From sequence record KX534341.1: a DNA stretch of 44,899 nt; one strand, given 5' to 3'. The notes beneath the pieces were generated by a model. That model was not told the origin of the DNA and made no database searches. It saw only the letters and a program-made list of their open reading frames with translations. Position 1 is the first letter of the stretch; the number at the start of each line of letters is the position of its first letter. A program made the translations under genes and the position numbers. This document shows positions 7,482 through 38,579 of the stretch, in pieces. This DNA is from Escherichia phage Pride.

Positions 7482-10124
7482 ATGGCAGATCAGGCAGCAG
7501 GCATCACGCTAAAGGCGGATGTTGCACAAATCAGAACGGCGAATACTGTGCTTGATTCATTCGCACAGAAATCCGAGAACACAGAAAACAAGGTTAAGAA
7601 ATTAAACGACACCCTCGGCAAATCCAAAAAGGTGACGAGTGACGCCGCGGGCGGAATGGAGAAGCTGGCGACTGAATCGCAGCGCGCTGCCGATGGCATG
7701 ACGAAACAGGAGCGACTTGCCAACAGGTTAGGCATGTCGACCAAAAACCTGGGCTTTGCCTCGCGTAACGCCGCATTCCAGTTACAGGATATCGCAGTTA
7801 CGCTTGAGATGGGGATGCCGGTACACCGCGTTATGCTTCAGCAGTTACCGCAGTTAACTGGGGCGTTCGGGGGATTGGGTAACACGCTGCGTTATGTGGC
7901 GGGATTCCTCGGCCCAGTAGGGATCGGCATTGCCGCACTAACGGCAACGTTAGGCGTCGGCGTGGCAGTTACGACCCGAGCAGAAAACCAGGTCGCAGCG
8001 CTTAACAAGACGCTGGCGCTGTCGGGTAACATTTCCGGCCTCACCGCTAACCAGATCCTTGTGCTGTCTGAGAACGCTGAGCGCATGGGCTGGTCATTCC
8101 GCAAGACGCGAGACACCATTCAGGCACTGGCGGCGGCGGGCGTTAAAGCGGGTGCGGACTTCGGCGCGCTGGCGAAAGTGGTGAATGACTTTGCGAAGGC
8201 GTCTAATCAGCCGATCTCTGACGTGGTTGAATCCATCTCAAAATTGTCGAACGACCCGGTCGGTGGACTGCGCGCACTGGCGGACCAGTATCACGTCGTT
8301 ACCGAGGCGCAGATCCAGCAGGTGCAATCACTAGTGACGGCTGGTCGAGAAACCGAAGCGGTGGCGCTGGCGAACAAAACCGCCGCTGCGTCGTTCTCCA
8401 GCATGACCAATGAGATCAAGTCCAACATGGGTACGCTCGAGCGGTCTATGAACGTCGTCACATCTGCAGCCAAATCCATGTGGGACGCCATCCTGGATGT
8501 AGGACGCGCGCAGTCATCGAATGAGTCCGAGATGAAAGCGCGTGAATCCTTGCAGCGCATGACCACGGCTTACTATGCCGAGATGAAAGCGGTAAACGCT
8601 GCCGGTGGGGTGATGACCGAGGCGCAGAAAGCGCGTATTAACATGCTTTACAGCGAACTGGTCGCCCAGGAAAAGGTGGTGGCGTCGCTCACCCTGCGCA
8701 ACCGCGCCGAGCGAGACAACGCCAGCGCCGCTGACGAAGCAGCAAAGGCGAACGAGGAGGCAAACCGCACCGCCCGCGACCGCGCCGCGTTTGAGAAGGA
8801 GTACGCAACCAACGCGAAGCGGCGAGCCGACGAGATCGCCCGCCTCAATTTGCTGAATAAGCGCGGTGTTATTAACGAGAAAGAACTAGCCGAGGCGGTG
8901 AAGCAGGTCAACGAGCGCTACAAAGACCCAGCACCGAAAAAGGCGGCGGCAATTCGAGTCGATGCCGGGCTGAAAATGCTGGAAGTCGCGCGAAGCGAAT
9001 TAGCCCAGCTTCGTGAGTCTGGAAAGCAGATCGAAGCCAACGCATCGACGCAGACCCGCACGCAACGCGCGCAAGCGGCCCTTAACAAGCTGATCGCGGA
9101 CCATGAACAGTTAATCGCGGCGAGCAAAGAAAGGGCGCTGACGGCAGCAGAAAAGCAGCAAATGGCGGAGTTCGAGTCGGTTAAATCGGTACGCGAGCAG
9201 ATCGTCGAAGAAGCCAAATTGCTGGACGCGAAAGAGAAGCAGATCAAGGCACACGCCCAGGTCGAAGCATTCATCAAGAACCAGAACGCCGAGCTAAAAG
9301 CCACCGCGGCGGGCTATGCGCTTTCTACTCGCGAAGCGGCTAACCTGCGCGAAGAGTTGCAGCTAATTGACCGCCTTCAGCGTGCCGGTGCTAACGATAC
9401 TGATATTGACAAGGCGGTGTATAAGCTGCGTGAGGTTCAGGAAGCACAGACCGGTGCTAACGCCTCATTATGGGATGGATTCAGTCGCGGGCTTCGCGAT
9501 AGTGTGGATGAAATGGGTAACGGATACACGCAGATGTCGTCACTCACAAAATTCACGTTCGGTGCTATGCAGGACACGATGAACGAGTTTTTCGAGACTG
9601 GCAAGCTGAACGCAAAAGATATGGTTAAGTCCATTCTGAGCGAATTAATAAAGCTGGCTACCTCGCAGGCGTTCAAGTCCATCGTTAGCGCTTTCGGTGG
9701 CGACGGCGGCAAAAACGGATTGTTCGGCGCTATCTTCTCGGGCCTCACTAAGAATGCGGACGGCGGAGCGTACACCGGAGGCAATCTCGCGGCCTATTCG
9801 GGGCAAGTGGTGAGCCAGCCTACCTTTTTCAGTTATGGCGTCCAGGCGTTCGCTAAGGGCGCTGGGTTGATGGGTGAGGCTGGACCCGAGGCCATCATGC
9901 CACTGAAGCGCGGGCCGGACGGGAAACTGGGCGTTGCCGCGTCTGGCGCAGGCGGTGGTATGGTCGTGACGACTAACGTTTACACGGGGACCGGTAAGAC
10001 GGATACCAGTGTTGGCGGGCCGGACCCACGTACCGCGCAGGCGTTCGGCAAGCAAATCACCGAGGCGGTGAAGGCCGAGATCGTGAAGGCGATGAAACCG
10101 GGTGGTGTACTTTACAAACGATGA
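7482..10124 (+). CDS. Tape measure protein
   Basis: 880-aa ORF rich in A/Q/K/E coiled-coil-like sequence, between G/GT chaperone and tail-tip genes; AAGGGGA RBS. Confidence 0.85.
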   Translation: MADQAAGITLKADVAQIRTANTVLDSFAQKSENTENKVKKLNDTLGKSKKVTSDAAGGMEKLATESQRAADGMTKQERLANRLGMSTKNLGFASRNAAFQLQDIAVTLEMGMPVHRVMLQQLPQLTGAFGGLGNTLRYVAGFLGPVGIGIAALTATLGVGVAVTTRAENQVAALNKTLALSGNISGLTANQILVLSENAERMGWSFRKTRDTIQALAAAGVKAGADFGALAKVVNDFAKASNQPISDVVESISKLSNDPVGGLRALADQYHVVTEAQIQQVQSLVTAGRETEAVALANKTAAASFSSMTNEIKSNMGTLERSMNVVTSAAKSMWDAILDVGRAQSSNESEMKARESLQRMTTAYYAEMKAVNAAGGVMTEAQKARINMLYSELVAQEKVVASLTLRNRAERDNASAADEAAKANEEANRTARDRAAFEKEYATNAKRRADEIARLNLLNKRGVINEKELAEAVKQVNERYKDPAPKKAAAIRVDAGLKMLEVARSELAQLRESGKQIEANASTQTRTQRAQAALNKLIADHEQLIAASKERALTAAEKQQMAEFESVKSVREQIVEEAKLLDAKEKQIKAHAQVEAFIKNQNAELKATAAGYALSTREAANLREELQLIDRLQRAGANDTDIDKAVYKLREVQEAQTGANASLWDGFSRGLRDSVDEMGNGYTQMSSLTKFTFGAMQDTMNEFFETGKLNAKDMVKSILSELIKLATSQAFKSIVSAFGGDGGKNGLFGAIFSGLTKNADGGAYTGGNLAAYSGQVVSQPTFFSYGVQAFAKGAGLMGEAGPEAIMPLKRGPDGKLGVAASGAGGGMVVTTNVYTGTGKTDTSVGGPDPRTAQAFGKQITEAVKAEIVKAMKPGGVLYKR

Positions 10125-10158
10125 TAAAATGGCCCTCACTACAACGTGGGGGCTTTTT

Positions 10159-10758
10159 ATGTCACAAGGTACAATCACACTAACGAAAGGAAGTAAGACC
10201 GTCACGGGCGCGGGAACGGCGTTCCTTAGCGAGATCGGGAAGGTACTCGTATTCGCCCGCATCGACGGCAACGACTACACCGGCAAAATTGCGGCATTCA
10301 ACTCGAACACGGTCATTACTCTGAAAGATAACTGGGCTGGGCCAACGAAATCCGGTGCGGCATATGAGCTAATCGAAGCACACGACCCGCGATCAAACGA
10401 ATGGCCATATTACTGGCACATGCAATTGCAGGGCGGTGGCGACGTGCAGTTAGCTTTCCGGTCGGAGGAATTGCAATTCGGTAATGGCTACGGACAGAAC
10501 ATCGCGGACGGCCCGAACGCCGAAACGAAACAGTTCCCCGTGCAATTCGTCGGGCTGACTACGGACAAATGGTGCAATCCTAAACTGGTTTACAACTTCC
10601 TTCGCGGTCACTTCGTAAAACCGTTTGTCGTCACCGCGCCGGATGGCGAAACAGGTTTATTCGTGGTCGAGCGTTCGAGCTTGTCGTACACGGACAACGG
10701 GCACTACACGGCAACGGTATCCGCCACCCTTAAGACTGCTATTGGATTCGTAAGATGA
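10159..10758 (+). CDS. Minor tail protein (lambda M-like, with N-terminal extension)
   Basis: First gene after tape measure; ATG 10159 with GGGGG RBS preferred over 10102/10129; gene order M-L-K-I-J. Confidence 0.55.
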   Translation: MSQGTITLTKGSKTVTGAGTAFLSEIGKVLVFARIDGNDYTGKIAAFNSNTVITLKDNWAGPTKSGAAYELIEAHDPRSNEWPYYWHMQLQGGGDVQLAFRSEELQFGNGYGQNIADGPNAETKQFPVQFVGLTTDKWCNPKLVYNFLRGHFVKPFVVTAPDGETGLFVVERSSLSYTDNGHYTATVSATLKTAIGFVR

Positions 10759-11543
10759 ATAAACTCTATCGTGAAGCGACGCGCTTTGACCCCTCAGGAC
10801 GCGTTCGCCTGATTCACATTGACGCGCAGGACGTGGAACCCGGAGACGGCGCGATCGGCGCGGGCCACCACTATTTTCATTACTGCTTTATCCCACACAC
10901 TGCGGAGGATATCGCTGCCGCGGGTGGTGACGAGGATAAGCTAAAACCTAAATCAATCTTCTTCGGCGGGCAGGAGTTCGAATTTTGGCCCTTCGATTTG
11001 TCCGGCCTTAACTTTTCCACATCGACGGCAGCAGAACCGCAACTAACAATCGTCGATATTGGCGGCATAATAACCCGGCTGTCACTGAATCACGACCAGC
11101 TACTGGGCGCGAAGGTTGAAATAATCGACACATTCGCGAAGTTCCTGGATAACGGGTCGGACCCAGACCCGACGCAGAAACGAGTGCAGGAGTATTACAT
11201 CGACTCGCAGGTCGGGCGCAATCCAGGCAAGCAAATCACCTTCGCACTATCCTCCCCCGCGGATATGGAAGGGCAGGTCGTTCCCCGTCGCCAGATCATG
11301 AACATGTGCGAATGGGCGCTCAACGGGAAGTACGCCAGCGGGGACGGTTGCACATGGAACCTTGCACAGCCTGGAATAAAGTATTACGACGAGCGAGGTA
11401 ATGAAGTCATCGCAATGAATATGGACCGATGCGGCGGCTGTTTGTCCGACTGCTATCTTCGTTTTGGGCAAGGGCTTGCGGATCCTAAAGCTGCGGTGCT
11501 GGACTTCGGTGGTTTTCCTGGGTCCAAATTAATCAAGGGGTAG
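10755..11543 (+). CDS. Minor tail protein (lambda L-like)
   Basis: Position in M-L-K-I-J order; C-terminal Cys cluster (CEW..C..MDRCGGCLSDC) consistent with the Fe-S motif of gpL. Confidence 0.75.
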   Translation: MNKLYREATRFDPSGRVRLIHIDAQDVEPGDGAIGAGHHYFHYCFIPHTAEDIAAAGGDEDKLKPKSIFFGGQEFEFWPFDLSGLNFSTSTAAEPQLTIVDIGGIITRLSLNHDQLLGAKVEIIDTFAKFLDNGSDPDPTQKRVQEYYIDSQVGRNPGKQITFALSSPADMEGQVVPRRQIMNMCEWALNGKYASGDGCTWNLAQPGIKYYDERGNEVIAMNMDRCGGCLSDCYLRFGQGLADPKAAVLDFGGFPGSKLIKG

Positions 11544-11545
11544 CC

Positions 11546-12286
11546 ATGTTAACGAAAAAGGTTAAAAGCGATATCGCCGCGCACGTTGCGGCATGTCTGC
11601 CTGAAGAAGCCTGTGGCCTTGTTGTCATGGTGGGCCGCAAACAAGTATTTGTCCCGTGCATGAACGTATTCGAAGACCCGACCGGCGTGCGCTCACGCAG
11701 AGACGCATTCACGATTAGTGATATGGCCTGGATGGATGCCGAGGATATGGGCGACGTCGTGCGAGTAGTCCACTCGCATCCAGGCCAGCGAGAGCTTACA
11801 CCCTCACTTGGCGACGTTAACGGATGCAACGGCAGCGGCGTAGTCTGGACCATCACTAACGAATATGGCGACTTTATCGAGATCGACCCTGAAGACCCGC
11901 CGCTGGTAGGCCGCCGATTTGTTCTCGGAATTACAGATTGTTATGGCCTCGTCATGGACTGGCACAAAAAGCAGGGTGTAAACCTGCCAGACTTCCGCGT
12001 GCCGTATAACTGGTGGGAGACAGGCGAAAATCTGTATATGGATAATTGGTACGGTGCTGGCTTCAGGGAATGCGAGGAGAATACGCCGGGGGCAATGGTC
12101 ATCATGCAGATTAGCGCGCCTGTGCCTAACCACGCTGGGATATTCCTTCCGGGCAACCAACTACTACACCATATCTACGGCAGCCTGTCGAGCGTGATTC
12201 CCTTCCGGGCAGGATTTTTCCGGGACAATGTGGTTAAATGGGTACGTCATAAAGACCTACCGGGGAATATAACAGAATGGCAATGA
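11546..12286 (+). CDS. Tail assembly protein (lambda K-like; JAB/MPN plus NlpC/P60 domains)
   Basis: JAMM-like motif (VVHSHPGQ..S..D) and NlpC/P60-like Cys (GITDCYGLV); position. Confidence 0.8.
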   Translation: MLTKKVKSDIAAHVAACLPEEACGLVVMVGRKQVFVPCMNVFEDPTGVRSRRDAFTISDMAWMDAEDMGDVVRVVHSHPGQRELTPSLGDVNGCNGSGVVWTITNEYGDFIEIDPEDPPLVGRRFVLGITDCYGLVMDWHKKQGVNLPDFRVPYNWWETGENLYMDNWYGAGFRECEENTPGAMVIMQISAPVPNHAGIFLPGNQLLHHIYGSLSSVIPFRAGFFRDNVVKWVRHKDLPGNITEWQ

Positions 12287-12894
12287 CCACATTTAAATTA
12301 TACGGCGTTTTAGGACGTCGATTCGGTAAAGTGCATAAGCTGGACTGCTTCACTCCGGGCGAGGGTATTACCGGCCTGTGCGTGAAGTTACCCGGCTTAC
12401 AGGACTTTCTAATGTCAGCCCACCTGGACAATATGATGTTCAAGGTGCGCAAAGGCGACCACACGATGACCGGCTATGATGAGCTGGGTGAGTTCCACGG
12501 CAACCGCGTCGTCACCATCGCGCCGGTTATGACTGGCGCAAAAAGAGGGTTGGGACAATTGCTGGCGGGTGTCGCGATCGTAGTGGCGTCGTTCTATACG
12601 GGCGGACTTGCTACTGCCGCTTTCGGGGCTTCGGCTGCAACCGCTGCCGCTATCGGGACGGCGACGTTTTCGTTCGGGATGTCGATGGCGCTGGGTGGCG
12701 TTATGCAATTGCTGTCGCCACAACCGAAAGGATTGCAGACAAGGCAGGACGTGGATAACAAAGCGTCGTATGCGTTCGGAGGCCCAGTAAACACTACCGC
12801 GCAAGGCACGGCTCTTGGTGTATTATGGGGCGAGCGTGAGATCGGCGGCGCTATTATTTCAGCCGGAATCGTAACCGAGGACTTGAACGAATGA
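12277..12894 (+). CDS. Tail assembly protein (lambda I-like)
   Basis: Position between K-like and J-like genes; Gly/Ala-rich hydrophobic C-terminal half. Confidence 0.7.
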   Translation: MAMTTFKLYGVLGRRFGKVHKLDCFTPGEGITGLCVKLPGLQDFLMSAHLDNMMFKVRKGDHTMTGYDELGEFHGNRVVTIAPVMTGAKRGLGQLLAGVAIVVASFYTGGLATAAFGASAATAAAIGTATFSFGMSMALGGVMQLLSPQPKGLQTRQDVDNKASYAFGGPVNTTAQGTALGVLWGEREIGGAIISAGIVTEDLNE

Positions 12895-15800
12895 CGATTA
12901 TCTACGACGTCACAGGGCATAAAGGCGGCGGCGGCAAACAGCACACCCCACAGGAGACGCCAGATAGCCTGCATTCGCTGGCTAAAATCCGCATCTTGCT
13001 TGCGCTGGGGGAAGGGGAATTCGAAAGTATTACCAGCGCCAGCGAATTGCGGCAGCGTGTTTACCTTGATGGAACACCGATCCAGAACGCGGACTTGTCC
13101 GAAAACTTCCCCGGCGCGCGGGTGGAGTTCCGCCCAGGCACACAGCACCAGGACGTGATCCACGGATTTTCAGCGGTGGAAAGTGAGCAATCCATCGGTG
13201 TAAAACTGGAAAACGGCACGCCGTGGGTGCGCCAGATTAACGACACCAGTTTGGACGCCGTGCGCATTCGCATCGGCATTCCGGCCCTGTACACAAACGA
13301 AGATAATGGCGACCTGGTGGGCGGGCGCATCGACTATAAGATCGTTGTGTATACGGATAACGCCGACCCGCGTGAGTTCAGATTCGCCGCCGTTGGTAAA
13401 ACAATGTCGCTGTATGAGCGCGACCACCGCATCGAATTACCGCCGAACGTGAATACCGGCTGGCGCGTGGAGGTGCACCGCATAACGGCAGACTCCACAT
13501 CGGCGAAAGTGGTTAATGATATCCGGGTGCAGTCCATCACTGAGATTATTGACGCCCGCCTGCGTTACCCGCTAACCGCGCTGTTGTTTGTGGAGTTCGA
13601 CGCCAAAGCGTTCCAGAACATCCCGCGCGTGTCCATCAAGTGCAAAGGCCGCAAAGTTCTAATACCGAACAACTACGACCCGATTAATCATACCTATTCC
13701 GGGGACTGGGACGGCACGTTTAAACGCGCATGGACGGATAACCCTGCGTGGCACTGGTACGATATTTGTATTACTGAGCGCTTCGGCCTCGGTCGGCGTA
13801 TCAAACCGCAAATGTTAAACCGGTACGCGCTCTACCAGATTGCGCAGCGCTGCGATCAGTTGGTCAGCGACGGCAACGGTGGTCGAGAAATCCGCTTTAA
13901 GAATGATATGTACATTCAGTCACAGACGGATGCCTGGACCGTGCTTAAGGATTTAGCCGCCATCTTCGCCGGAATGACCTGGTGGGGCAACCAGATGTTG
14001 AATATCGTCAGTGACCAACCGGTCGCAGCAGTGTCGCACACTATCACCAACGCCTCGGTTATTGATGGTCGATTCGACTACGCGTCCGGTAGCCAGAAAA
14101 CTCGGTATTCCACATTCGCGGTAGCATACGGCAACCCGAAGAACCACTATGAAGATGCCATCGCAACGGGGCAACGTGTCGAACTGGTACGCCGCCATAA
14201 GATTAACCGTCTTGATATAACGGCGATCGGCTGTACGCGTGAGTCAGAAGCGCAACGACGTGGGCACTGGGCGCTAATCTCCAACCAGCTTGACCAGCAA
14301 GTTAGCTTTAAGGTGGGCATGGAGGGACTTTTCTTTATTCCTGGTAGCGTAGTCGCGATCGCCGATACAAACATTTCTGGCGGCTTCGAGACACGCGGCG
14401 GTCGCCTGTTGTCGGACCCTGGCACGCGTACCGTGCTTAACACGGACAGCGAAATCACATTCCGCCCAGGTGATAAATTCCTGGTACGCACCGATAGTGG
14501 TAATGTAGAGACTCGCGAGATCGCCAGCGTCAACGGCAACAAGGTTACGCTAAAAACCGCACTGGACGCCGACCCGATTCCTGATCAGCCGTTTTGCGTC
14601 GATGGCAACGATATCCAGTTGCAGAAGTTCCGCATCACCGACCTGGAATATGACGACTCTACGAGCACTTTCTCGGTGCGCGGGATTGAATACAACGATA
14701 GCAAATATGATGCCGTTGATAATGGCGCGCGCCTAGACCCGGGCATCTTTACGCAAGTGCCTGACGGGGTAATGAAGGGGCCGGAATCCGTGACCATCAC
14801 CCCGTCGCAGATTTCATCGCAAGGACAGCTAATCACCAACGTGGATATTGTATTCCCTCCGGTGAAGGATGCCGTGGTGTATGAAATCCAGTGGAGGCGT
14901 ACCAGCCTTCAGAATATGGAAATCCAGTGGGGTAACGACTGGGTGAATATCCCACGCACGGCGTCGAACGGCGCGCACATCCCTAACGTGTTCTCCGGTA
15001 ACTACCAGGCACGCGTCCGCGCGATCGGTATGGGCGAGATTTCATCTCCGTGGGTGTCGTCCGCCATCACGCCGGTGGAAGGTCGTCTCGGTGGGCTTAA
15101 CGCACCAATCATCACCAACGCTATTTCGGGCCTTCACCAGATCTTGTGGAAGTGGAACCACAACAACGCCGCTACTGATATCTCGTACACCGAGCTTGAA
15201 GTGCGCAAGACCGGTGAGACTGAATGGAAATTCCTTACCAACGTCCCATATCCGGGGGCGGAGTATGCGCAAACATCGCTGGAGTTCGGAATTTACCAGC
15301 AGTTGCGCGCCCGTGTAGCGGATAAAATCGGCAACCGGTCGGACTGGTCGGCCCCGTTTGAAGGGCAGGTGAGTGACAAAGTTGACGAGTACATGAAGGG
15401 GCTTGATGACGAGTTCTTGACTTCCGAGGATGGTAAACACTTCCAGGAAGCTATTAACACGATCCCGCAAGGCATTTATGAGTCAATGCTCACCGACGCC
15501 CAGCAGCTATTCAACGCCCGCGCCGAGTACAAAGGGATTTATGCGGAAATCAAGGTGACGTATAACGTGGCGGCGGACGCCCACAAGGCGGTCGCTCAAC
15601 TGGAGACGTTGATCGGCACGCGACTTGATGACGCGGAAGCTGCGATCCGCACGTTGCAGACCGCGCAGAGCACACAGGAACAAGCGTTCGCCCAGTACCA
15701 GCAAACTGTTGCCGCTAAGTTCGGGGAACAGGAAGCCGCCATCCAGCAGGTACAAACGGCAACCGCAGACGTGGCGGGAGCGCTGGCGGAATATAAGACC

Positions 15801-16310
15801 CAGGTCGCTACACAGTTCGGTCAGCAGTCCGCCGCTATCGAGCAGAAGATGACGTCCTCGTTTAACCACTCTGGTGGTAGCGCCACGTATAGCCTTAAGG
15901 CTGGCGTGACATATAACGGGACTTATTATGATGCGGGTATGCAGCTTTCCGTTGTGACGTCTGGCAACGCGGTTAAATCGCGTATTGCGTTCAAGGCGGA
16001 CCAGTTCTACATCATGCATCCGTCCAATGGGACGCTGTCGTCTGCGTTTATTGTGGACGGTGGCGCGGTGTATATCGACACGGCACGCATCAAGAACGCG
16101 TCCATCAACTTCGCGCAGATAACAGACACGCTGCAATCGAATAACTACGACGGCAGCACGCGCGGCTGGCGCTTAGGGAAAGATGGAACGTTTATCAACC
16201 TGGGCACCGGTAGCGGCGGCGGGATGAAACAGACGAACACAAGAATCAGCGTGAAGGACGGAAACGGCGTTCTCCGCGTGCAGATTGGTGAGCTTACTGG
16301 TAGCTGGTAG
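12891..16310 (+). CDS. Central tail fibre / tip attachment protein (lambda J-like host specificity protein)
   Basis: 1139 aa; recognisable similarity to lambda J as recalled from memory (GHTP.E...L, YSGDWDGTFK.AW..N.AW..YD, ALYQIAQRCDQLVSDGNGG). Confidence 0.9.
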   Translation: MTIIYDVTGHKGGGGKQHTPQETPDSLHSLAKIRILLALGEGEFESITSASELRQRVYLDGTPIQNADLSENFPGARVEFRPGTQHQDVIHGFSAVESEQSIGVKLENGTPWVRQINDTSLDAVRIRIGIPALYTNEDNGDLVGGRIDYKIVVYTDNADPREFRFAAVGKTMSLYERDHRIELPPNVNTGWRVEVHRITADSTSAKVVNDIRVQSITEIIDARLRYPLTALLFVEFDAKAFQNIPRVSIKCKGRKVLIPNNYDPINHTYSGDWDGTFKRAWTDNPAWHWYDICITERFGLGRRIKPQMLNRYALYQIAQRCDQLVSDGNGGREIRFKNDMYIQSQTDAWTVLKDLAAIFAGMTWWGNQMLNIVSDQPVAAVSHTITNASVIDGRFDYASGSQKTRYSTFAVAYGNPKNHYEDAIATGQRVELVRRHKINRLDITAIGCTRESEAQRRGHWALISNQLDQQVSFKVGMEGLFFIPGSVVAIADTNISGGFETRGGRLLSDPGTRTVLNTDSEITFRPGDKFLVRTDSGNVETREIASVNGNKVTLKTALDADPIPDQPFCVDGNDIQLQKFRITDLEYDDSTSTFSVRGIEYNDSKYDAVDNGARLDPGIFTQVPDGVMKGPESVTITPSQISSQGQLITNVDIVFPPVKDAVVYEIQWRRTSLQNMEIQWGNDWVNIPRTASNGAHIPNVFSGNYQARVRAIGMGEISSPWVSSAITPVEGRLGGLNAPIITNAISGLHQILWKWNHNNAATDISYTELEVRKTGETEWKFLTNVPYPGAEYAQTSLEFGIYQQLRARVADKIGNRSDWSAPFEGQVSDKVDEYMKGLDDEFLTSEDGKHFQEAINTIPQGIYESMLTDAQQLFNARAEYKGIYAEIKVTYNVAADAHKAVAQLETLIGTRLDDAEAAIRTLQTAQSTQEQAFAQYQQTVAAKFGEQEAAIQQVQTATADVAGALAEYKTQVATQFGQQSAAIEQKMTSSFNHSGGSATYSLKAGVTYNGTYYDAGMQLSVVTSGNAVKSRIAFKADQFYIMHPSNGTLSSAFIVDGGAVYIDTARIKNASINFAQITDTLQSNNYDGSTRGWRLGKDGTFINLGTGSGGGMKQTNTRISVKDGNGVLRVQIGELTGSW

Positions 16311-16312
16311 TA

Positions 16313-16331
16313 TAGGGGCTTCGGCCCCTTT
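16313..16331 (+). terminator. Intrinsic terminator (ggggc-ttcg-gcccc-ttttt) after J-like gene
   Basis: GC stem with tetraloop and T-run. Confidence 0.55.
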
Positions 16332-16346
16332 TTAACGAGGTTATTT

Positions 16347-16649
16347 ATGGCATTCGGTATCGCAACGTGGGACGCGCAAGGACGCCCAAACAACTACGGC
16401 ATTAAACCGGTAAGCGTGATCGGAAGGATTCATCTTGCGGAAGGACAAAAATCAGGCGCATGGTCATTCCCTGTACCGGCGGGGATGAAGGTCGGATACG
16501 TGGTCGCACTGGATAAAGGCGCGGTCGGGCCAGGCCGCAGAATAACCGCCAGCGGGAACACTATCACGGTTTCCGCGGCAAGTGCGGTAGGTGGCGGGGT
16601 TTACTCCGCATCTGAATGTGACGTTATTGTTTTTGTGGAGCGAGCATAA
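16347..16649 (+). CDS. Hypothetical protein (tail-associated by position)
   Basis: ORF with ACGAGG RBS downstream of J-like gene. Confidence 0.6.
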   Translation: MAFGIATWDAQGRPNNYGIKPVSVIGRIHLAEGQKSGAWSFPVPAGMKVGYVVALDKGAVGPGRRITASGNTITVSAASAVGGGVYSASECDVIVFVERA

Positions 16650-17323
16650 TGGCTAATTACGGCGCGTTGATTGACTTACCAAACGGCAACCCGTTTATCA
16701 CGCCAGAATCGACGCCGTTTTGTCTATTCCGCCGTGTGGTTGTTGGGTCTTCGGCTAACGGCACTGCGCAGTCGGCGGCTGCCGATATTAATTTGGGCGG
16801 TGACTACCCTGCAATAGCGTTTGTGAAAACTACGCACACCGCCCAGCCGACCGTCGTAGGGTCTTCTCGCGTTGGTAATGTGGTGAAGGTGAGCGCCAGC
16901 AATCCATTCGGGCAAGGCTTCACGATGACGGCTTACATCTTTGCCATATTCCCACAGACCCTTCCGCGGTGGGGCTTCGCTATTTGGGATAAGACGGGGA
17001 AGCTAGTGCTTACTAATGAGAGTCGCGTACTGAGCGATTTAGTTACCGTCGGGTCGCCTGGCGCTAACGGGGGGATTAACATTGATCAGACGCTAAACGG
17101 CAGCTACGCCGTCGCACCGGGAATATTGGGGTCTACGCTGATCCGGTTTTTTGTGCAGGGCCAGCCGCAGGTAATATCGGTAACGGCGTACACGGGGGCC
17201 AGATTTGATGGGTCGCGAACGCGTATATCGGCAGCGTCGTCAGGGAACGCCACGGGGGATGTGGTGGGGTATACTAACAACGGCAACGCGATTATGGCGA
17301 TTAACACTGCCAATTATGATTGA
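16649..17323 (+). CDS. Hypothetical protein (tail-associated by position)
   Basis: ORF translationally coupled (ATAATG) to upstream gene. Confidence 0.6.
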   Translation: MANYGALIDLPNGNPFITPESTPFCLFRRVVVGSSANGTAQSAAADINLGGDYPAIAFVKTTHTAQPTVVGSSRVGNVVKVSASNPFGQGFTMTAYIFAIFPQTLPRWGFAIWDKTGKLVLTNESRVLSDLVTVGSPGANGGINIDQTLNGSYAVAPGILGSTLIRFFVQGQPQVISVTAYTGARFDGSRTRISAASSGNATGDVVGYTNNGNAIMAINTANYD

Positions 17324-17326
17324 AGA

Positions 17327-17344
17327 AAGCCCCGAAAGGGGCTT
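17327..17344. terminator. Bidirectional terminator hairpin (aagcccc-gaaa-ggggctt) between convergent genes
   Basis: Stem-loop flanked by T-rich sequence on both strands; overlaps stop of minus-strand lipoprotein gene. Confidence 0.5.
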
Positions 17345-17561
17345 ATTTGCAGGTTGTGCTTTTGAAATGGTCTACAGACACGTACTGGAAGCTAAACGGA
17401 TAACCCGCCCTTAGCATTTTATGCCCGGAGAAGTCCGCAACACCATACACAGGTACCGCATAATCCATGCCGCTATTCTGGTATGTGGCGTCGCAGACTT
17501 TAGCGGGCATGTTGGCACAACCGGACAAAAGAACCGCACAAATCATAATTAAAGTTTTCAT
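17343..17561 (-). CDS. Small outer-membrane lipoprotein moron (72 aa); candidate superinfection-exclusion protein (Cor/Llp-like)
   Basis: ATG at 17561 with AGGAGA RBS; signal peptide plus lipobox (MKTLIMICAVLLSGC); opposite strand inside tail module; own promoter. Confidence 0.65.
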   Translation of the reverse strand: MKTLIMICAVLLSGCANMPAKVCDATYQNSGMDYAVPVYGVADFSGHKMLRAGYPFSFQYVSVDHFKSTTCK

Positions 17562-17592
17562 GGTATCATCTCCTATATTTGGTCGAGTTTCA

Positions 17593-17620
17593 GTATTACA
17601 CCGCTCAACCAGGATTGCAA
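17593..17620 (-). promoter_or_regulatory. Predicted promoter (TTGCAA-N16-TAATAC, ATTGGTTGCAA motif) for the lipoprotein gene
   Basis: -35 at 17615..17620 and -10 at 17593..17598 on minus strand. Confidence 0.4.
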
Positions 17621-17641
17621 CCAATTTATGAGGATTTAGCT

Positions 17642-19420
17642 ATGGCAGCGGGCACACTATCCGTAACGAATAACAGCAAGGCGGTTGTAGGGGTCGGCAC
17701 AACGTTTACCTCGTTTAACGCTGGCGACTTCTTAACGCTGGTGGTAGGACAAGTCCCCTACACCGTAGCAATCGCGTCCATTGAAAGCGAAACCGCGCTT
17801 ACGCTGGTGTTGCCGTTCGACGGCCCAACGGCAACCGGCCTCGCGTGGGATGGCGTTAAGCGCGATACCATGTCACTGGCGACGATGGGTGTAACCGTAC
17901 AGGCACAGAAAGCATTGCGCTTGATGATTGCAGATGAAAACAACTGGCGTGCAATCTTCGGCGACGCTGAAGAAATCACCGTGACGCTGCCTAACGGGCA
18001 GGTAATGCAGGGTATGTCATGGGGCTACCTGTCGCAGTTGATGAAACAGATCGACCCCGTTGAGATGCTAAACCTGCAACAACAAGCCGCCGCATCGGAA
18101 GCAGCCGCGCAAGGATACCGCGACCAGGCCGAAGGCATTAAAACCGAGACGGCAGGCATCCGCGACGACACCAGGTTGATTAATGCTGATACGCTGGCGA
18201 TCCGCAACGACACCGATGCCATCAGGACGAATACCAACCAGATTAAATCAGATACGCAGGCCATTAAGGACCAGACGAACCAGATCAAGACGGACACCGG
18301 CGTTATTCGCGACGAAGCCAATACCGCGAAGACGGACGCGCAATCCGCCCGCGATGCTGCGCTGGGATACCGGAACGAGGCCGAACAGTTCAAGAATGAG
18401 ATCGACCCGTCGAAACTTCTGGCAAAGGCCAACAACCTTAGCGACGTTGCCGACCCCGCGGCAGCGCGCGACCACTTAGGCATCGGGCCTGACGACACCC
18501 TTAACCTTGGTGGCCTGGTAACGTCCGGCAGTATCTCCGCGGGCCGCAACACATGGGATGGGTCTAACTGGGGGAGCCAGGGACTTCTCGCCTCATTAGT
18601 GGTCCTATACCCGGACGGAAGCTCAGCCCCAGGCTTATACGTGCGAAAATCCAACGGCGACAGCGGATATGCGGCGGGATGGTTGTATAACGAGAACAGT
18701 ATCAGTTGGGCTACTAACGCGCGTATTGCGGGCTTTCAGTTCCGGTCCCCTAAAGGCGCGATGGGGTATAACCAGCTATGGTCAGAGGCTGTGGTGCGTG
18801 CGGACGACTTCATGGCACAGAATGGCGCGGAAAACTATAAGTCGTTAATCGCGGGGGCCGCTACAACGCAAGGTCACGGATACTCGGGCGGTGTCTCGTT
18901 CGGGATAATGACAACTGGCATAAACAACTGGCCCCGGGCGCAGATCTCGATCGGCACAGCAGACCGTGACGCCGCTGGGAATATGGCTTCGCAGATGCAC
19001 TTCCGCTTTAATGAATATGGGCAGATTTCTTACACAGGGCCACTGGGGACGGGGTCGTTCCAGCAAGTACCTGCGTCGGATCGCAACCTGAAGCATGACA
19101 TTGCCGATGACGCAAGCAGCACCGCCTACGACAATATCAAGGCTTTGCGGTTCCGCACGTTCGTATTCAACAACGATGAACAGGAACGGCAGCGTCGCGG
19201 TATTATTGCGCAGGAAGCGGAAGAAATCGACCCGCTGTATGTGAAGCACCGCGTGTATAACAATCACGAATTAAATGGGCCTCTGGTGCACCAGCTTGAA
19301 CTGGATACGACACCGCTGTTACTCGACACTATGCGAGCGTTGCAGGATACGATTAAGCAGGTGGAGGATTTGAAGGCGGAGATCGCAGCGATGAAGCAGG
19401 CGGAAGAGTTGAAGAAATAA
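17642..19420 (+). CDS. Tail fibre protein with C-terminal intramolecular chaperone (peptidase S74-like) domain
   Basis: ATG 17642 with GAGGA RBS; repetitive segments (IRDDTRLINADTLAIRNDTDAIRTNTNQIKSDTQAIKDQTNQIKTDTGVIRDE); C-terminal DRNLKHDI...RTFVFNND motif typical of self-cleaving fibre chaperone domains. Confidence 0.8.
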   Translation: MAAGTLSVTNNSKAVVGVGTTFTSFNAGDFLTLVVGQVPYTVAIASIESETALTLVLPFDGPTATGLAWDGVKRDTMSLATMGVTVQAQKALRLMIADENNWRAIFGDAEEITVTLPNGQVMQGMSWGYLSQLMKQIDPVEMLNLQQQAAASEAAAQGYRDQAEGIKTETAGIRDDTRLINADTLAIRNDTDAIRTNTNQIKSDTQAIKDQTNQIKTDTGVIRDEANTAKTDAQSARDAALGYRNEAEQFKNEIDPSKLLAKANNLSDVADPAAARDHLGIGPDDTLNLGGLVTSGSISAGRNTWDGSNWGSQGLLASLVVLYPDGSSAPGLYVRKSNGDSGYAAGWLYNENSISWATNARIAGFQFRSPKGAMGYNQLWSEAVVRADDFMAQNGAENYKSLIAGAATTQGHGYSGGVSFGIMTTGINNWPRAQISIGTADRDAAGNMASQMHFRFNEYGQISYTGPLGTGSFQQVPASDRNLKHDIADDASSTAYDNIKALRFRTFVFNNDEQERQRRGIIAQEAEEIDPLYVKHRVYNNHELNGPLVHQLELDTTPLLLDTMRALQDTIKQVEDLKAEIAAMKQAEELKK

Positions 19421-19424
19421 GAGA

Positions 19425-19445
19425 GGGGCCATACAGCCCCTTTTT
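19425..19445. terminator. Bidirectional intrinsic terminator (ggggc-cataca-gcccc-ttttt) between tail fibre gene and convergent minus-strand operon
   Basis: GC stem, T-run on plus strand and T-rich flank on minus strand. Confidence 0.55.
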
Positions 19446-20019
19446 AGTTTGAGTTTTCCCAGTCCATTTTGCGCCGCACCAGCGGGCTTTCGTAATATTC
19501 CTTTCCTTCCACTTCCACCAAAGGCCAGTCGTTCACAATCACGTATGGCTCCGCGATATCCTCAATCACGCCGTGCGCGCTTTGCGGCCCTAACGACACA
19601 CCAACCAGGATAACACCGGCAACGCGACGGGTCAGATATTCGCGAGCGCAACGTGCCTCAACCAGCCCACGACGGATGCCGCTGGTGGCCTTAACCTCGT
19701 AGGTCCATACGGCATCGATCACATGCTCGCGGAAGTCGGGACCGGACTTCACCTTGCGCTTGCCTACCATGATAATATCGCCGCGGTCTATGGTATTGGC
19801 ACTAAACAAGCCGGTACGCATGAGCAAACCTTGCGGTATACAACTGCGCCCGCCTGCTTGCCCTTCAAGGTACATGCCCGCAAACATTTCGCCCAGCACA
19901 CCGACCAGTCGGCTTTGCTTGCACGCGTCGGACTTTAAGCGCCATTGGTCAAACTCGATGCTTGCTATCATTGCCGCCAGGTGGAATTGTTTACCGGATA
20001 TTTCATATTCGCCGTACAT
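19444..20019 (-). CDS. Hypothetical protein with possible PD-(D/E)XK nuclease-like motif
   Basis: 191-aa ORF; GDIIMVG ... DAVWTYEVK resembles a D...E.K catalytic arrangement; weak. Confidence 0.4.
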   Translation of the reverse strand: MYGEYEISGKQFHLAAMIASIEFDQWRLKSDACKQSRLVGVLGEMFAGMYLEGQAGGRSCIPQGLLMRTGLFSANTIDRGDIIMVGKRKVKSGPDFREHVIDAVWTYEVKATSGIRRGLVEARCAREYLTRRVAGVILVGVSLGPQSAHGVIEDIAEPYVIVNDWPLVEVEGKEYYESPLVRRKMDWENSN

Positions 20020-33008: not shown

Positions 33009-35273
33009 ATGAGCTTAATTAAATTCGCTGTAACAAGACCCGCTAAAAAAGGCGAAAAAGCCAGGGCGGAAAACTTCCAGATGACGACCGATGAATTTTT
33101 CGAATTTATCAAAGATGCGAAAGAGATATCGTCGGTGCATATCAACAAGACGGAAGATAAAGCCGAGTATGCGCGCCGCAAGCGTAAGGCCGATGGCATC
33201 GTAGCGTATACCAGTGACGGCTTACGCCGCAAGACCAGTGCGGTGGACCGCTCGATCCTGTTCTTCGATATTGACCGTACCGACACCCGCACCCTACGCC
33301 GCTGCCGTAAGGCTTTCATCGACGCGGGGCTGGAGCACGTATTTCACACCACAACCGGCGACCGCCACCCGCTGAAAGGCGGCACGCGTTGCGCTCGTTT
33401 CCTGGTGCTCACCGACAAGCCTGTACCGGCTGAAGACCTGGGCCGCGTCCAGTACGCACTATTACACCAACTGGGCCTGTCAGATGTGGACTTCGATGAT
33501 TGTACGAAAGACACAAACCGCCTGATGTACCTGCCACACCAGCAGTCTGTTATTAAGTGCCACTACGGCAAGCGTGCCCGCGTCCGTCGTCTGCTTCGCC
33601 TGGCGGATAAGTTGGGCGTGGAGAAGGAGGAAGTACGCCGCGAGCTTACCCAGGGCGACGACGCAGTGGCAGACGGCATTCTGGACTGGTGCTTCCAGGC
33701 AGGATTCGAGGAGTTATCTTCCGGTCGCGGTTATGAAGTGCCGTGCCCGAACGAACATCTGCACAGCGGCGAAGGGTCGACGGCTATCATGGTCAAGGAT
33801 GGCGAGATCCGTTTCAAGTGTATGCACACCGGCAACGAGTGTTGCTCGGAACTGAACAGACACCAGCACCTGGCGCTACGTCTTATCGGGATCCCGGACC
33901 ACCTGAACGTCGAGCCGCACAACATGTCACGTAAGCAAATCGCCGCCATCCTTCCGGGACTGGACGATGAGGAAGTGGAATCGTGCTATGAACATATCGT
34001 TGATGCGGTCGGAGACGGCGACGAGTACGGCGTGTGTACTGATGCAGACCTGGACAACGAGCCGGTCGCACTGTTCAGTAAGCACGACCCGATCATCGAA
34101 GGCCTGGTCAACTTCAAATCGACCTGGTATCTCGCCGGTGAGTCGAACATTGGCAAGTCGTTCTACGTGCTGGGCCAGATGGCGTCAGTATCTGCCGGTA
34201 TTCCGTTCGGCGGTGCGAAGGTCGTCCAGTCTCATTGCTTCTATTTCGATGCGGAAGGTGGTGAGGCCTCCAACCAGCGTAAAGAAGCACTGCAGATCAA
34301 ATATGAGCACGACCTGGACAAGCTGCACATTATCGATCTGCAATCACGCGGCTGGGATATCACCAGCAAATCCGGCTTGCGTGAAGTTATCAGCTTCATC
34401 AACCGCACCGCTAACGGCGAGCCGGTTGGCCTGGTGGCGTTCGACTCACTCAACCAGACTGTTGCGCTGCGGTCCGCCGATGCAAAACCGTTCGACGAGA
34501 ATAACGCCAGCGATATGGGTGAAGTGGTCAAAGCGCTGAAGGCCATTGCGGAAAATACAGGCGGCAGTGCGGGCGTCATCCACCACCCGGCGAAGGGTGC
34601 AAACGGCAGCAGATCTCCCCGTGGGTCCGGCGCGCTGCATGGCGCTGTCGATTCTGCGTTCTTCCTGGAACAGCCGGACGACAACCAGCCAGGTCAACTC
34701 AACCTGTATCACGAAAAATCCCGTAACGGCATCAAGCAAGCGCCGCGCGGCTTCGTCCTGCTCAAGTGCAAGGTTAAGGTGGATCTCCGCAAGTCCGAGG
34801 CGTTCGAAGCCCACCAGTCCACCAGCACCGGGCCGGACTTCGGTGACGTCGTTGCCGGTTGGGACGTCAAGCCGATTGCCTCCACGCCACGCGACGAGAC
34901 TCTTTACCTCGTACCGGTCGCCCTGGCACCGTTCGCCATTGAGCAGGCAAAGGCCGCTGGCAAGGCCGCAGTTAAGGAAGAGAACGCCGCAGGACCGCGC
35001 AACGAAAAAGAGAAAGTGCTTTATGCAGCGCTGGAAAAACTGATGGAAGATAACCCGGACCATACCGGATTCAGCAAATCGGCAATTGTCCGCCAGGCTG
35101 GGCTTGCGAAAGGTGGCACATCGACGAAGGCAATTGACGATATGGTCGAGCGCGGCGTGCTCGGTTTTTATACCGATCCGCACACCGGGGCCATCTATGG
35201 GTCGTCGAATATCGTCATCAAAACGAAGATACCCATCACGCTTTCGGCGACCGATGACGACTTAAAAGATTAA
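33009..35273 (+). CDS. Bifunctional DNA primase / replicative helicase (primase-polymerase-like N-terminus, zinc ribbon, RecA/DnaB-like ATPase)
   Basis: ILFFDIDRTD acidic motif; Cys/His zinc cluster (CPNEHLH...CMHTGNEC); Walker A GESNIGKS; VIHHPAKG. Confidence 0.75.
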   Translation: MSLIKFAVTRPAKKGEKARAENFQMTTDEFFEFIKDAKEISSVHINKTEDKAEYARRKRKADGIVAYTSDGLRRKTSAVDRSILFFDIDRTDTRTLRRCRKAFIDAGLEHVFHTTTGDRHPLKGGTRCARFLVLTDKPVPAEDLGRVQYALLHQLGLSDVDFDDCTKDTNRLMYLPHQQSVIKCHYGKRARVRRLLRLADKLGVEKEEVRRELTQGDDAVADGILDWCFQAGFEELSSGRGYEVPCPNEHLHSGEGSTAIMVKDGEIRFKCMHTGNECCSELNRHQHLALRLIGIPDHLNVEPHNMSRKQIAAILPGLDDEEVESCYEHIVDAVGDGDEYGVCTDADLDNEPVALFSKHDPIIEGLVNFKSTWYLAGESNIGKSFYVLGQMASVSAGIPFGGAKVVQSHCFYFDAEGGEASNQRKEALQIKYEHDLDKLHIIDLQSRGWDITSKSGLREVISFINRTANGEPVGLVAFDSLNQTVALRSADAKPFDENNASDMGEVVKALKAIAENTGGSAGVIHHPAKGANGSRSPRGSGALHGAVDSAFFLEQPDDNQPGQLNLYHEKSRNGIKQAPRGFVLLKCKVKVDLRKSEAFEAHQSTSTGPDFGDVVAGWDVKPIASTPRDETLYLVPVALAPFAIEQAKAAGKAAVKEENAAGPRNEKEKVLYAALEKLMEDNPDHTGFSKSAIVRQAGLAKGGTSTKAIDDMVERGVLGFYTDPHTGAIYGSSNIVIKTKIPITLSATDDDLKD

Positions 35274-35410
35274 AATTTGCGCGCATTGGTCGCCGATATG
35301 GGGATTCCCATATCGCTAGACGATTAAATTTTGCGCGCATTGGTTGCCATTTTGAGTGTTTTTATCTGGTCGTATTGGTTGCCGTGTAGTGTGAATATAG
35401 TGAATAGTTA

Positions 35411-35592
35411 TGCAGTTTTATTGCATAAAGTAAGCGGGACAAAAAGCGGGACAAACAAGGGGCGGGACAAAGCGGGACAGCACCCCCGTCCCGCCACGGA
35501 TGGCGCGGCTTCCAGAGGAGCGGGACAGCGGGACAGCACCCCAGTCTTTCAGACTAGACGGGGGTCAATGGCCCCCCTCGTCTGAGACTGAA
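35411..35592. repeat. GGGACA-array element, copy B (homologous to 7256..7413), preceded by direct repeats TTGCGCGCATTGGT(C/T)GCC at 35271..35294 and 35325..35350
   Basis: Four GCGGGACA direct repeats, GGGACAGCGGGACAGCACCCCAGTCTTTCAGACTAGACGGGGG...CCCCCCTCGTCTGAGACTG conserved in both copies. Confidence 0.8.
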
Positions 35593-35749
35593 TAAAATCC
35601 GGGGATTGCAAAATACACGGCAGCATGATGCTAAGTGCGGTCGTCGATGAACTAGGCAACCAATGCAGGTTGTATTATGCTGAGTGAAAATGCGGTTTGC
35701 AGTCACAGCAGATAGCGATCAACTTTTTCATGCGCGTGATTAATATTGG

Positions 35750-35778
35750 TTGCACCCTGCCTGGCGCCCTGCTATATT
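35750..35778 (+). promoter_or_regulatory. Predicted promoter (TTGCAC-N17-TATATT) with two ATTGGTTGCAC motifs
   Basis: -35 35750..35755, -10 35773..35778; -10 and leader nearly identical to the promoter of the 714..1478 gene. Confidence 0.5.
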
Positions 35779-35806
35779 GGTTGCACACCAACAAGAGGAC
35801 TGAACG

Positions 35807-36112
35807 ATGAAAGCATTAATCTGGAATTACACATCAGCGGTCGCAGCGCTCTATGAAGCGAAGCACACAAACGGCAACGCCGACCACGCACGCCAGGCTG
35901 TAATGTTCGCGCAGCAGGCAATCTTTGCAGCGTTCGACAACATGGGCGTCAGCCTGGATGAACTGGAACCATTGCGTGTGGCAATCTGCGAGTATGCGAT
36001 GAAATTCGCCCGTGAGCGTCTTGCGTACCGGTTTGGCATCGGAGAGACGGCAGTGACTAACATCGCTCGCATCACGGCTCAGCGTGAGCTGCACGCCTTA
36101 CTTGCGAAATAA
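35807..36112 (+). CDS. Hypothetical protein
   Basis: ORF with AAGAGGA RBS. Confidence 0.6.
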   Translation: MKALIWNYTSAVAALYEAKHTNGNADHARQAVMFAQQAIFAAFDNMGVSLDELEPLRVAICEYAMKFARERLAYRFGIGETAVTNIARITAQRELHALLAK

Positions 36113-36121
36113 GGGGCTAAA

Positions 36122-36391
36122 ATGGCACGTAGACGCGCTAAATGGTTATCCTGGTATATTCCCCTGCATAGCATCCGTTTATGGGCGCAGAATGCGATTG
36201 AGGGTGATTCTGTGTTCTGGAGCTATCGGGATGACGTCAAGCCGCTGACGCAGACCAAAATGCTGCACCAGTTCATGAACGAACACGGACTGCCGGTGAA
36301 AACATCATTGCAACCAATCGGCATCCGTATTACATTACGCCGTAAGCCAATCGTTGCGCAGGTTGGCAAACACAAGAGACTGAGCAAATGA
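36122..36391 (+). CDS. Hypothetical protein
   Basis: ORF in operon context. Confidence 0.55.
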   Translation: MARRRAKWLSWYIPLHSIRLWAQNAIEGDSVFWSYRDDVKPLTQTKMLHQFMNEHGLPVKTSLQPIGIRITLRRKPIVAQVGKHKRLSK

Positions 36392-36540
36392 CACCAATGC
36401 AAAGAGCGCTAATGGCTGGATTCTCGCAGAAGTTTATTTCAGTAGACGACTGCATAGCTGATTATGAGATGGACGGCATCGCTACGGTATGCGATGGCGA
36501 CTATAAGACTGTTGACGAGATCGAGGAGACTGAGCAATGA
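36388..36540 (+). CDS. Small hypothetical protein (50 aa)
   Basis: ATGA-coupled at both ends; below the table size cutoff. Confidence 0.4.
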   Translation: MTPMQRALMAGFSQKFISVDDCIADYEMDGIATVCDGDYKTVDEIEETEQ

Positions 36541-37091
36541 AATTACTATTCCGCAATAAACATAACGGGCTATTCTTCACCCCGATCGAAGTGCTGCCGA
36601 ACTTTGTGCGCATGTACCATGAAGCCAGCGACCGCGTATACTGGTACAGGAAAGACACCCTGCATGAGCATTTGCAGGTTGTGCATCACGACGTACGAGT
36701 AGGTGATGTGCTGCGTTGTGATGGCAATGACTACACCTGGGTCGTGAAGTCAGTCGGGAAGGAATGGATTACTATCGACAGCACTCTGGTTGCGGGCGCA
36801 ACAATAAACCCCGCCACCCTGGTGAACTACACCCGCGTAGGCCGGAACTATGCACCTAAGCGCCCTGGCGTCGAAGCGAAAGCGATTACCCGTACGGAGC
36901 ACCCATATACCAAATACGACGAGAACAAGGTGCGCCAGCATATCGACAACGCCCGGAAAGCCATCACCCAGCAATGTGATGCGATGCGCCTGGCTAATCT
37001 GGACGCAGAGCGCTTTGGCATTGGTGTGATCCTGGTCTACCCGGACGGCAGCATGAAGTCTACCGATCCGCGCTCGGTGATTCAGAAATGA
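36537..37091 (+). CDS. Hypothetical protein
   Basis: ORF in operon context. Confidence 0.6.
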   Translation: MKLLFRNKHNGLFFTPIEVLPNFVRMYHEASDRVYWYRKDTLHEHLQVVHHDVRVGDVLRCDGNDYTWVVKSVGKEWITIDSTLVAGATINPATLVNYTRVGRNYAPKRPGVEAKAITRTEHPYTKYDENKVRQHIDNARKAITQQCDAMRLANLDAERFGIGVILVYPDGSMKSTDPRSVIQK

Positions 37092-37228
37092 GTGCGACGG
37101 TCCGTGATATGCTAATGCATAACCGCTTTGAGGTTGGCGGTCGTGTATTCCGTAACTACTTCGTTGCGCGCGCCTGGGCGCGCCACATTGGCAAACCAGA
37201 GGGGGCAATACGATGCTACACGATTTGA
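37088..37228 (+). CDS. Small hypothetical protein (46 aa)
   Basis: ATGA-coupled start; overlaps next gene start. Confidence 0.3.
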   Translation: MSATVRDMLMHNRFEVGGRVFRNYFVARAWARHIGKPEGAIRCYTI

Positions 37229-37500
37229 TATATTGGTTTGGATTGGGGTGCGCGACACTCTTTGCCACGGTGCTGGCGCTGTTGGTATGGGTGTTCCTGA
37301 TTTGGCCCGCGGTGGAAGCAGCCAGCATTACCCGCATGACGTTCCAGATATACAAGCGCCGTGGCATCACGGAGCACCCTACCAGGTTGCGCATGTGGTG
37401 GCTATGGTATCGCGATATGATCGGCGGGCGAATGTTCGAGGCCGTCCGATCGGAAGGGTGGGAGTGGAAAGGCGTCGGCAAGTGGTCCATTTTCGATTAA
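37213..37500 (+). CDS. Membrane protein (two TM segments), upstream of lysis cassette
   Basis: Hydrophobic segments FGLGCATLFATVLALLVWVFLIWPAV. Confidence 0.5.
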   Translation: MLHDLIYWFGLGCATLFATVLALLVWVFLIWPAVEAASITRMTFQIYKRRGITEHPTRLRMWWLWYRDMIGGRMFEAVRSEGWEWKGVGKWSIFD

Positions 37501-37517
37501 TTATGCAAGCGTGATAT

Positions 37518-38563: not shown

Positions 38564-38579
38564 TACGAGGAGACACAGT

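Follow-up and report, generated by a model that had tools for sequence, protein, structure and literature searches.

Background

Several small lipoproteins encoded by phages act on FhuA, the TonB-dependent outer-membrane transporter used as receptor by phages such as T1, phi80 and T5. Cor proteins encoded by prophages keep out phages that depend on FhuA and inactivate the functions of FhuA itself, through a molecular mechanism that has been called unresolved (bioRxiv 10.64898/2026.03.26.714494). For Llp of phage T5 the mechanism has been solved: in the crystal structure that was obtained for FhuA bound to Llp, the lipoprotein sits on the periplasmic side against a non-native conformation of the plug, with the extracellular loops EL7 and EL8 folded inward and the phage receptor-binding protein thereby blocked (PMC9586334). 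The authors of that structure noted about 20% identity between Llp and Cor, including an intramolecular disulphide (Cys11-Cys58 in Llp), and expected Cor to act in a similar manner (PMC9586334); published structure models take the same view of the likeness of the Cor and Llp folds (bioRxiv 10.64898/2026.03.26.714494; PMC13164509).

Cor is also known from virulent phages. Within the BASEL collection, every Drexlerviridae and Dhillonvirus phage that targets FhuA is reported to contain a cassette with cor (PMC13164509), and among the Dhillonviruses phage JLBYU60 has been shown experimentally to depend on FhuA, specifically on its loop L8, with Envy and bob cited as FhuA-dependent in the same study (PMC10373560). 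Here we describe the corresponding locus of Escherichia phage Pride, as it stands in a sequence of 44,899 nucleotides (KX534341.1), the whole of which is referred to below as the window. An original prediction, drawn from this DNA without database searches, had pictured a minus-strand lipoprotein gene inside the tail module as a candidate for superinfection exclusion and as a possible indicator of receptor usage.

Results and discussion

Relationship of the window to other phage genomes

Positions 8600-19802 of the window correspond exactly (100%) to positions 33311-44513 of phage Gluttony, and a 2.9-kb query around cor finds 100% identity in Gluttony (KX534336 / NC_031113) as well as in phage Lust. 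Elsewhere in the window (19800-44700) the identity to Gluttony is only 98.4%, and the order is circularly permuted. By these alignments the window is a Dhillonvirus genome, either a close relative of Gluttony or a mosaic that carries an identical region comprising the tail tip, cor and the fibre gene. According to its record, Gluttony is a Dhillonvirus whose source was human bladder microbiota. Because no integrase or repressor is listed in its annotation, we take the phage to be virulent, like T1 and T5. A tRNA scan of the whole window found no tRNA genes.

Two further observations were made in the course of these comparisons. The query region matched several places in PQ843332.1 (P-GXEC-L2P5), a record whose 88,607 bp are about twice the length of a Dhillonvirus genome, and for which a concatemeric or duplicated assembly is more probable than a true 88-kb phage. 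At the other end of the window, the Rz-like spanin genes annotated in the RefSeq entry of Gluttony (gp38/gp39) map to approximately 258-699, where an overlapping spanin pair is found: the i-spanin frame is listed as the open reading frame 228-566, and the o-spanin candidate is the 76-aa open reading frame 469-699 with the lipobox LSAC. This pair lies between the head-morphogenesis and scaffold genes and, in Gluttony, about 6 kb from the holin and endolysin, so that the lysis genes are divided in an unusual way.

The cor gene and its product

The gene at the centre of this study is a minus-strand coding sequence at 17343-17561, with its ATG at 17561-17559 and its TAA at 17345-17343; the translation is MKTLIMICAVLLSGCANMPAKVCDATYQNSGMDYAVPVYGVADFSGHKMLRAGYPFSFQYVSVDHFKSTTCK (72 aa), and the predicted mature form, Cys15-Lys72, has 58 residues. 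Reading frame and lipobox pattern confirm the lipoprotein of 72 residues with a signal peptide and LLSGC that had been proposed. Of the range originally given, 17343-17620, the coding part is 17343-17561, and the remaining 59 nt (17562-17620) are upstream flank. A mechanical list of open reading frames contains a 93-aa version in the same frame, starting at the TTG at 17624. The ATG at 17561 is to be preferred since a good Shine-Dalgarno sequence precedes it and RefSeq annotates it as the start. In phage ZCEC10 (L006:1438-1719) cor is annotated from the upstream in-frame TTG, again as 93 aa, and some other GenBank records also start the gene at this TTG; the resulting spurious N-terminal extension of 21 residues would hide the signal peptide.

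The signal peptide, MKTLIMICAVLLSGC, occupies codons 1-15 (17517-17561, minus strand). It has a lysine at position 2 followed by a hydrophobic core, and a regular-expression search matches the lipobox LSGC, formed by L12, S13, G14 and C15 within LLSGC. The residue at +2 of the lipobox is alanine, a non-Asp residue that sorts to the outer membrane. With this textbook lipoprotein signal peptide, Cor is a predicted outer-membrane prolipoprotein.

Profile searches place the whole protein in the Cor family. It scores 57.4 bits (E 1e-15, residues 2-71) against the NCBIfam equivalog model NF047972, 'phage exclusion lipoprotein Cor', for which the curated cut-off is 31 bits, and it matches PHROG 1119 (Cor superinfection exclusion protein) over residues 1-72 with E 2.7e-27. 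A Pfam scan of the 72-aa protein returned no family at E <= 1; Pfam therefore offers no usable Cor model. Pairwise alignments run from end to end in the case of both phi80 Cor (42.9% identity over 77 columns, E 1.4e-19) and T1 Cor (47.9% over 73 columns, E 1.8e-23). The identical protein of Gluttony is already named in RefSeq (NC_031113, BI089_gp59) as "Cor superinfection exclusion protein". The guess that this would be a Cor-type lipoprotein is thus borne out by the two models, by the full-length alignments with phi80 and T1 Cor and by the RefSeq name. As the name is public, and a link between the cor cassette and FhuA-targeting Drexlerviridae and Dhillonvirus phages has been published (PMC8594841, PMC13164509), the gain in annotation is small.

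Full-length Cor homologues were detected by tblastn in 238 phage records, which include T1, phi80, lambdoid phages of the mEp and HK series and Stx phages. A word-indexed search for homologues yielded six close relatives only, and diverse members were obtained with an exhaustive search of representatives; the alignment used to assess conservation contains 21 family sequences with identities down to 30%. In this alignment Cys23, Gly53 and Cys71 are invariant, Gly14, the lipobox Cys15, Ala52 and Phe56 are conserved in at least 90% of the sequences, and the AGYPF motif, which takes the form (A/P)GYPF in the family, is well conserved throughout. The lipobox, the invariant cysteine pair and AGYPF are accordingly common to the Cor of the window and the Cor proteins of phi80, N15, HK022, mEp167 and the T1-like phages, relative to which (phi80/T1 group) the window protein is 3-5 residues shorter. 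Closer to hand, the orthologues that occupy the same slot in other Dhillonviruses (Envy, JLBYU60, JLBYU37, welsh, GeorgBuechner and others) have 79-100% protein identity, those of Gluttony, Lust and P-GXEC-L2P5 are 100% identical to the window copy, and the cor segment of SSL-2009a is 81.6% identical to that of the window. These Dhillonvirus proteins show no difference of substance from the window Cor, and several of the phages that carry them have been shown to need FhuA.

It is highly improbable that the gene is a leftover, decaying or non-functional, that travels with the tail module. No finding speaks for such a reading, and it is at odds with a frame that is unbroken in all of the 76 records having the mature cor segment. 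It is equally at odds with dN/dS values of 0.06-0.21, at dS of up to 0.74, among five Dhillonvirus orthologues (Nei-Gojobori), which indicate purifying selection, with the conservation of the Shine-Dalgarno sequence, the promoter-like blocks and the terminator stem described below, and with the invariance of functional residues in distant relatives. Given the matches to PHROG 1119 and NF047972, the 238 records with tblastn homologues and the dN/dS values, the minus-strand gene is, by all these comparisons, the real and already annotated cor of a virulent Dhillonvirus.

Another class of small outer-membrane lipoproteins, the Rz1-like o-spanins that function in lysis, might be thought to accommodate the product, and PHROG 456 ('Rz-like spanin') does give a faint match (E 0.064). 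This match covers residues 3-23, that is the signal peptide, only, and the Cor match is full-length and 25 orders of magnitude stronger. The phage already has its overlapping spanin pair at approximately 258-699, its holin and endolysin likewise lie elsewhere, and the cor locus is without a partner i-spanin. The signal-peptide-only match to PHROG 456 and the separate spanin pair effectively refute an Rz1-type role, the probability of which we regard as vanishingly small.

Expression signals

On the minus strand a Shine-Dalgarno sequence, AGGAGA, can be read at 17569-17574 with a spacer of 7 nt to the ATG, and it is invariant in six Dhillonviruses. Further upstream, visual examination revealed a candidate sigma-70 promoter of the extended -10 type (17592-17620, minus strand), composed of TTGCAA (17620-17615), 17 nt and TGt-AATACT (17597-17592), with 8/12 consensus matches. 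In the same six phages the blocks TTGCA, GTG and AATACT are invariant and at least six positions of the spacer vary; this amounts to a modest phylogenetic footprint, which is suggestive but not proof. A promoter scan made no call upstream of cor, the 8/12 candidate falling below the threshold of the tool. The sole minus-strand call of that scan, at 17569-17542, was rejected as it covers the Shine-Dalgarno sequence and the start codon. Since cor is flanked by genes of the opposite strand, a promoter of its own is the simplest reading. The promoter originally proposed for the gene is made plausible by the conserved candidate, though not by the promoter scan.

At the other end of the gene, an 18-nt element at 17327-17344, AAGCCCC-GAAA-GGGGCTT, forms a GC-rich hairpin of 7 bp between the convergent genes and overlaps the stop codon of cor by 2 nt. 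Its folding energy is -14.0 kcal/mol on the plus strand and -12.4 kcal/mol on the minus strand, with z about -3.1 on both, and the stem is conserved among the Dhillonviruses compared, the loop differing in ZCEC10. A terminator scan did not call this hairpin, because its T-tracts are too short. The bidirectional intrinsic terminator that had been postulated here thus finds backing in the stability of the hairpin on both strands, though not in the scan, and such a function of the candidate element is plausible. Taken as a whole, a weak extended -10 promoter within the divergent intergenic region of 80 bp would probably drive transcription of cor, with a predicted start near 17585, and transcription would end at the shared hairpin.

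Genomic context and FhuA usage

Upstream of cor in the direction of the tail operon lies the J-like central tail-fibre (tail tip) gene (12891-16310, plus strand), annotated as tail protein in NC_031113, whose product has 98.8% identity to the J protein of JLBYU60 and 35-37% to those of phi80 and T1. Its C-terminal approximately 45 residues (TFxNxG...MKxTN..ISV.D...LRVQxGxLTG) are held in common with phi80 and T1 and are absent from J of the LptD-type phage Bas84. Two small plus-strand genes follow. The first (16347-16649), with which the accessory genes of the FhuA-type cassette begin, encodes a 100-aa homologue of gp22 of phi80 and of N15 (PHROG 557, E 1.1e-32); its identity is 70% to phi80 gp22 and 54% to the T1 counterpart. 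The second (16649-17323; gp58) encodes a 224-aa homologue of phi80 gp23 (PHROG 425, E 4.6e-70), which is 57% identical to phi80 gp23, 53% identical to the T1 homologue and 100% identical to gp26 of JLBYU60. The database label of the latter is 'membrane associated protein', and the current names of both products look like weak annotation. The 224-aa gp23-like protein has been proposed as the FhuA-specific receptor-binding protein, and alleles of the locus track the terminal receptor (PMC8594841); the literature is nevertheless split on the two small genes, which are regarded either as an FhuA receptor-binding module (PMC8594841; bioRxiv 2026.04.02.716166) or as exclusion helpers (PMC13164509). 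On the far side of cor is the lateral tail-fibre gene (17642-19420, plus strand), which is annotated as tail fiber protein and matches PHROG 1980 with E 1.9e-142.

The cor gene converges with the two small plus-strand genes and diverges from the gene for the lateral tail fibre. Its placement on the opposite strand next to the fibre gene was correctly foreseen; it does not, however, directly abut J, as the two small genes intervene. The order J, 100-aa gene, 224-aa gene and cor is the same in the window, phi80 and T1, such that the window cor occupies the same slot after J-, gp22- and gp23-like genes as the phi80/T1-type cor and has the same tie to FhuA-using phages. Orientation differs within this set, the gene being inverted relative to the tail operon in the window and T1 and co-oriented with it in phi80. 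The hosts of the gene differ as well, the window being a virulent Dhillonvirus whereas prophage cor resides in temperate lambdoids. The term 'moron' applied to the gene at the outset is loose, in that cor belongs to a conserved cassette for receptor recognition and exclusion and is not a stray insertion.

The same comparisons bear on the receptor. This cor allele is found in the phages GeorgBuechner (Bas16) and KarlBarth (Bas17), for both of which FhuA is the listed receptor, whereas Oekolampad (Bas18) is without Cor and is listed with LptD. In conjunction with the neighbouring gene products, which are 100% (224-aa protein) and 98.8% (J) identical to those of the FhuA-dependent JLBYU60, this lends support by proxy to the thought that cor marks FhuA usage. 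From these near-identical relatives it would follow that the phage uses FhuA.

Possible exchange with LptD-type cassettes

The LptD-type Dhillonviruses Bas84 and Oekolampad have a lipoprotein of 73 aa in the cor slot (L004:5826-6047 and L009:2323-2544). Its signal peptide, MKTLIMIC[A/V]VLLSGC, agrees with that of the window Cor in 15/15 or 14/15 residues, and the Shine-Dalgarno sequence and promoter region of these Rtp45-type genes are identical or nearly identical to those of the window cor. The mature domain in Bas84, by contrast, has no relation to Cor; it matches Rtp45, the lipoprotein of LptD exclusion (PDB 9RPS chain D), with E 1.9e-7. The Rtp45-type proteins (Rtp, Oekolampad, Bas84) target LptD rather than FhuA, and are paired with a different, inverted gene for a receptor-binding protein of 321 aa. 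Membership of Cor itself in the Rtp45 family was considered and rejected: in BLASTP the Bas84 protein aligns with it over 16 N-terminal residues only, and the Cor profile reaches E 0.91 against 9rps_D over the signal peptide only.

Both boundaries of the divergent region can be located. On the right, the two cassette types become homologous again at the DNA level at position 17515 of the window, 1-2 bases past the codon of the lipobox cysteine. On the left, identity between J of the window and J of Bas84 drops from approximately 96% to approximately 10% after residue ~1085-1100, corresponding to ~16146-16190 in the window. In a phage collection the segment comprising the signal peptide and the intergenic region was present in 123 records, and the mature Cor segment in 76. 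By this comparison the signal-peptide codons (17517-17561) would be the right-hand junction of an exchangeable cassette, and the last ~40-55 codons of J (about 16146-16310) would be part of that receptor cassette.

These data are consistent with an arrangement in which the right arm (signal-peptide codons, promoter and Shine-Dalgarno sequence, start of the lateral fibre gene) and the left arm (J up to ~1085) would be fixed, and the J tip, the genes for receptor-binding proteins and the mature exclusion domain would be swapped as one unit, for instance FhuA/Cor for LptD/Rtp45-like, with the junction exactly at the lipobox cysteine. We give this model an even chance of being right. It adds a neat detail to a modularity already known from the literature and does not describe a new system.

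Structure and probable mode of action

An AF2 model of the window Cor has a mean pLDDT of 84, rising to ~95 for residues 21-70, and shows a small beta fold. Its top match among 350,542 PDB chains is 8a60_B, which is Llp in its complex with FhuA; this match is weak and below significance (Foldseek E 0.088, TM 0.48/0.55, rmsd 3.0 A, 51 columns). In BFVD, a library of viral structures, lipoproteins of T5-like phages rank 2 and 5 for the Cor model. At the sequence level a search of PDB sequences with the single Cor sequence gave no match, and a Cor-family profile matches Llp (8a60_B) with E 1.6e-4 and 24.9 bits, part of the alignment being signal peptide. The invariant Cys23 and Cys71 are positions 9 and 57 of the 58 residues of the mature protein, in parallel to Cys11-Cys58 of Llp.

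The comparison with Llp can be extended to the biology of the two phages. Like the predicted Cor of the window, Llp is a small lipoprotein of the outer membrane that comes from a virulent siphovirus using FhuA, its gene is located beside the receptor-binding gene, and a cysteine pair holds its N and C termini together, as would also be the case in Cor. The loop of FhuA that the Dhillonviruses need, L8 (PMC10373560), is one of the two that Llp folds away (PMC9586334), which provides a further link between the two proteins. On the other hand, pairwise identity between Llp and the window Cor is only ~20-24%, the two are not in the same curated family, and the mechanism is solved for Llp and not for Cor.

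Taking family membership and gene context, which can be read directly from the DNA, with a mechanism argued by analogy, we consider that the product is very probably a Cor-family outer-membrane lipoprotein that inactivates FhuA. In this scheme the mature 58-aa domain, probably held by a Cys23-Cys71 disulphide, would bind the periplasmic face or the plug of FhuA and lock the receptor in a state in which its extracellular loops refuse the phage receptor-binding protein, in line with the mechanism solved for Llp of T5. Neither the infected cell nor its debris would then go on adsorbing the phage's own virions or other FhuA-dependent phages (such as T1, phi80 and T5), so that superinfection would be prevented and progeny would not be wasted.

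The main competing view is that Cor excludes indirectly, by way of other outer-membrane proteins such as porins and OmpA or in concert with the two proteins encoded upstream in the cassette, without jamming FhuA in the manner of Llp. The literature regards the mechanism of Cor as unresolved (bioRxiv 10.64898/2026.03.26.714494), the title of one study announces an interaction of Cor with other outer-membrane proteins (reference 13 in PMC13164509), and the structural match between the Cor model and Llp is weak. Yet Llp is the top fold match in the PDB, the Cor profile matches it, and the architecture of the cysteine pair is parallel; the two upstream proteins, for their part, are read elsewhere as a receptor-binding module with alleles that track the receptor (PMC8594841). 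We therefore hold an indirect route to be unlikely, and Llp-like periplasmic jamming of FhuA to be the most likely, if unproven, mode of action. The sequence of the window gives no special leverage on the choice between direct jamming of the plug and an indirect effect.

Conclusions

For a virulent phage, a FhuA-inactivating Cor would probably, by analogy with T5 and T1, bring a twofold benefit, through exclusion of superinfecting phages and by keeping progeny off debris (PMC13164509). If the exchange of cassettes takes place as modelled here, the choice of receptor and the matching self-exclusion would always be inherited together. In practice the presence of cor would be a reliable genomic marker of FhuA use by this phage, which may serve in receptor prediction. 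It also predicts that infected cells would be refractory to T1, T5, phi80 and their relatives, a consideration that is relevant to the design of phage cocktails.
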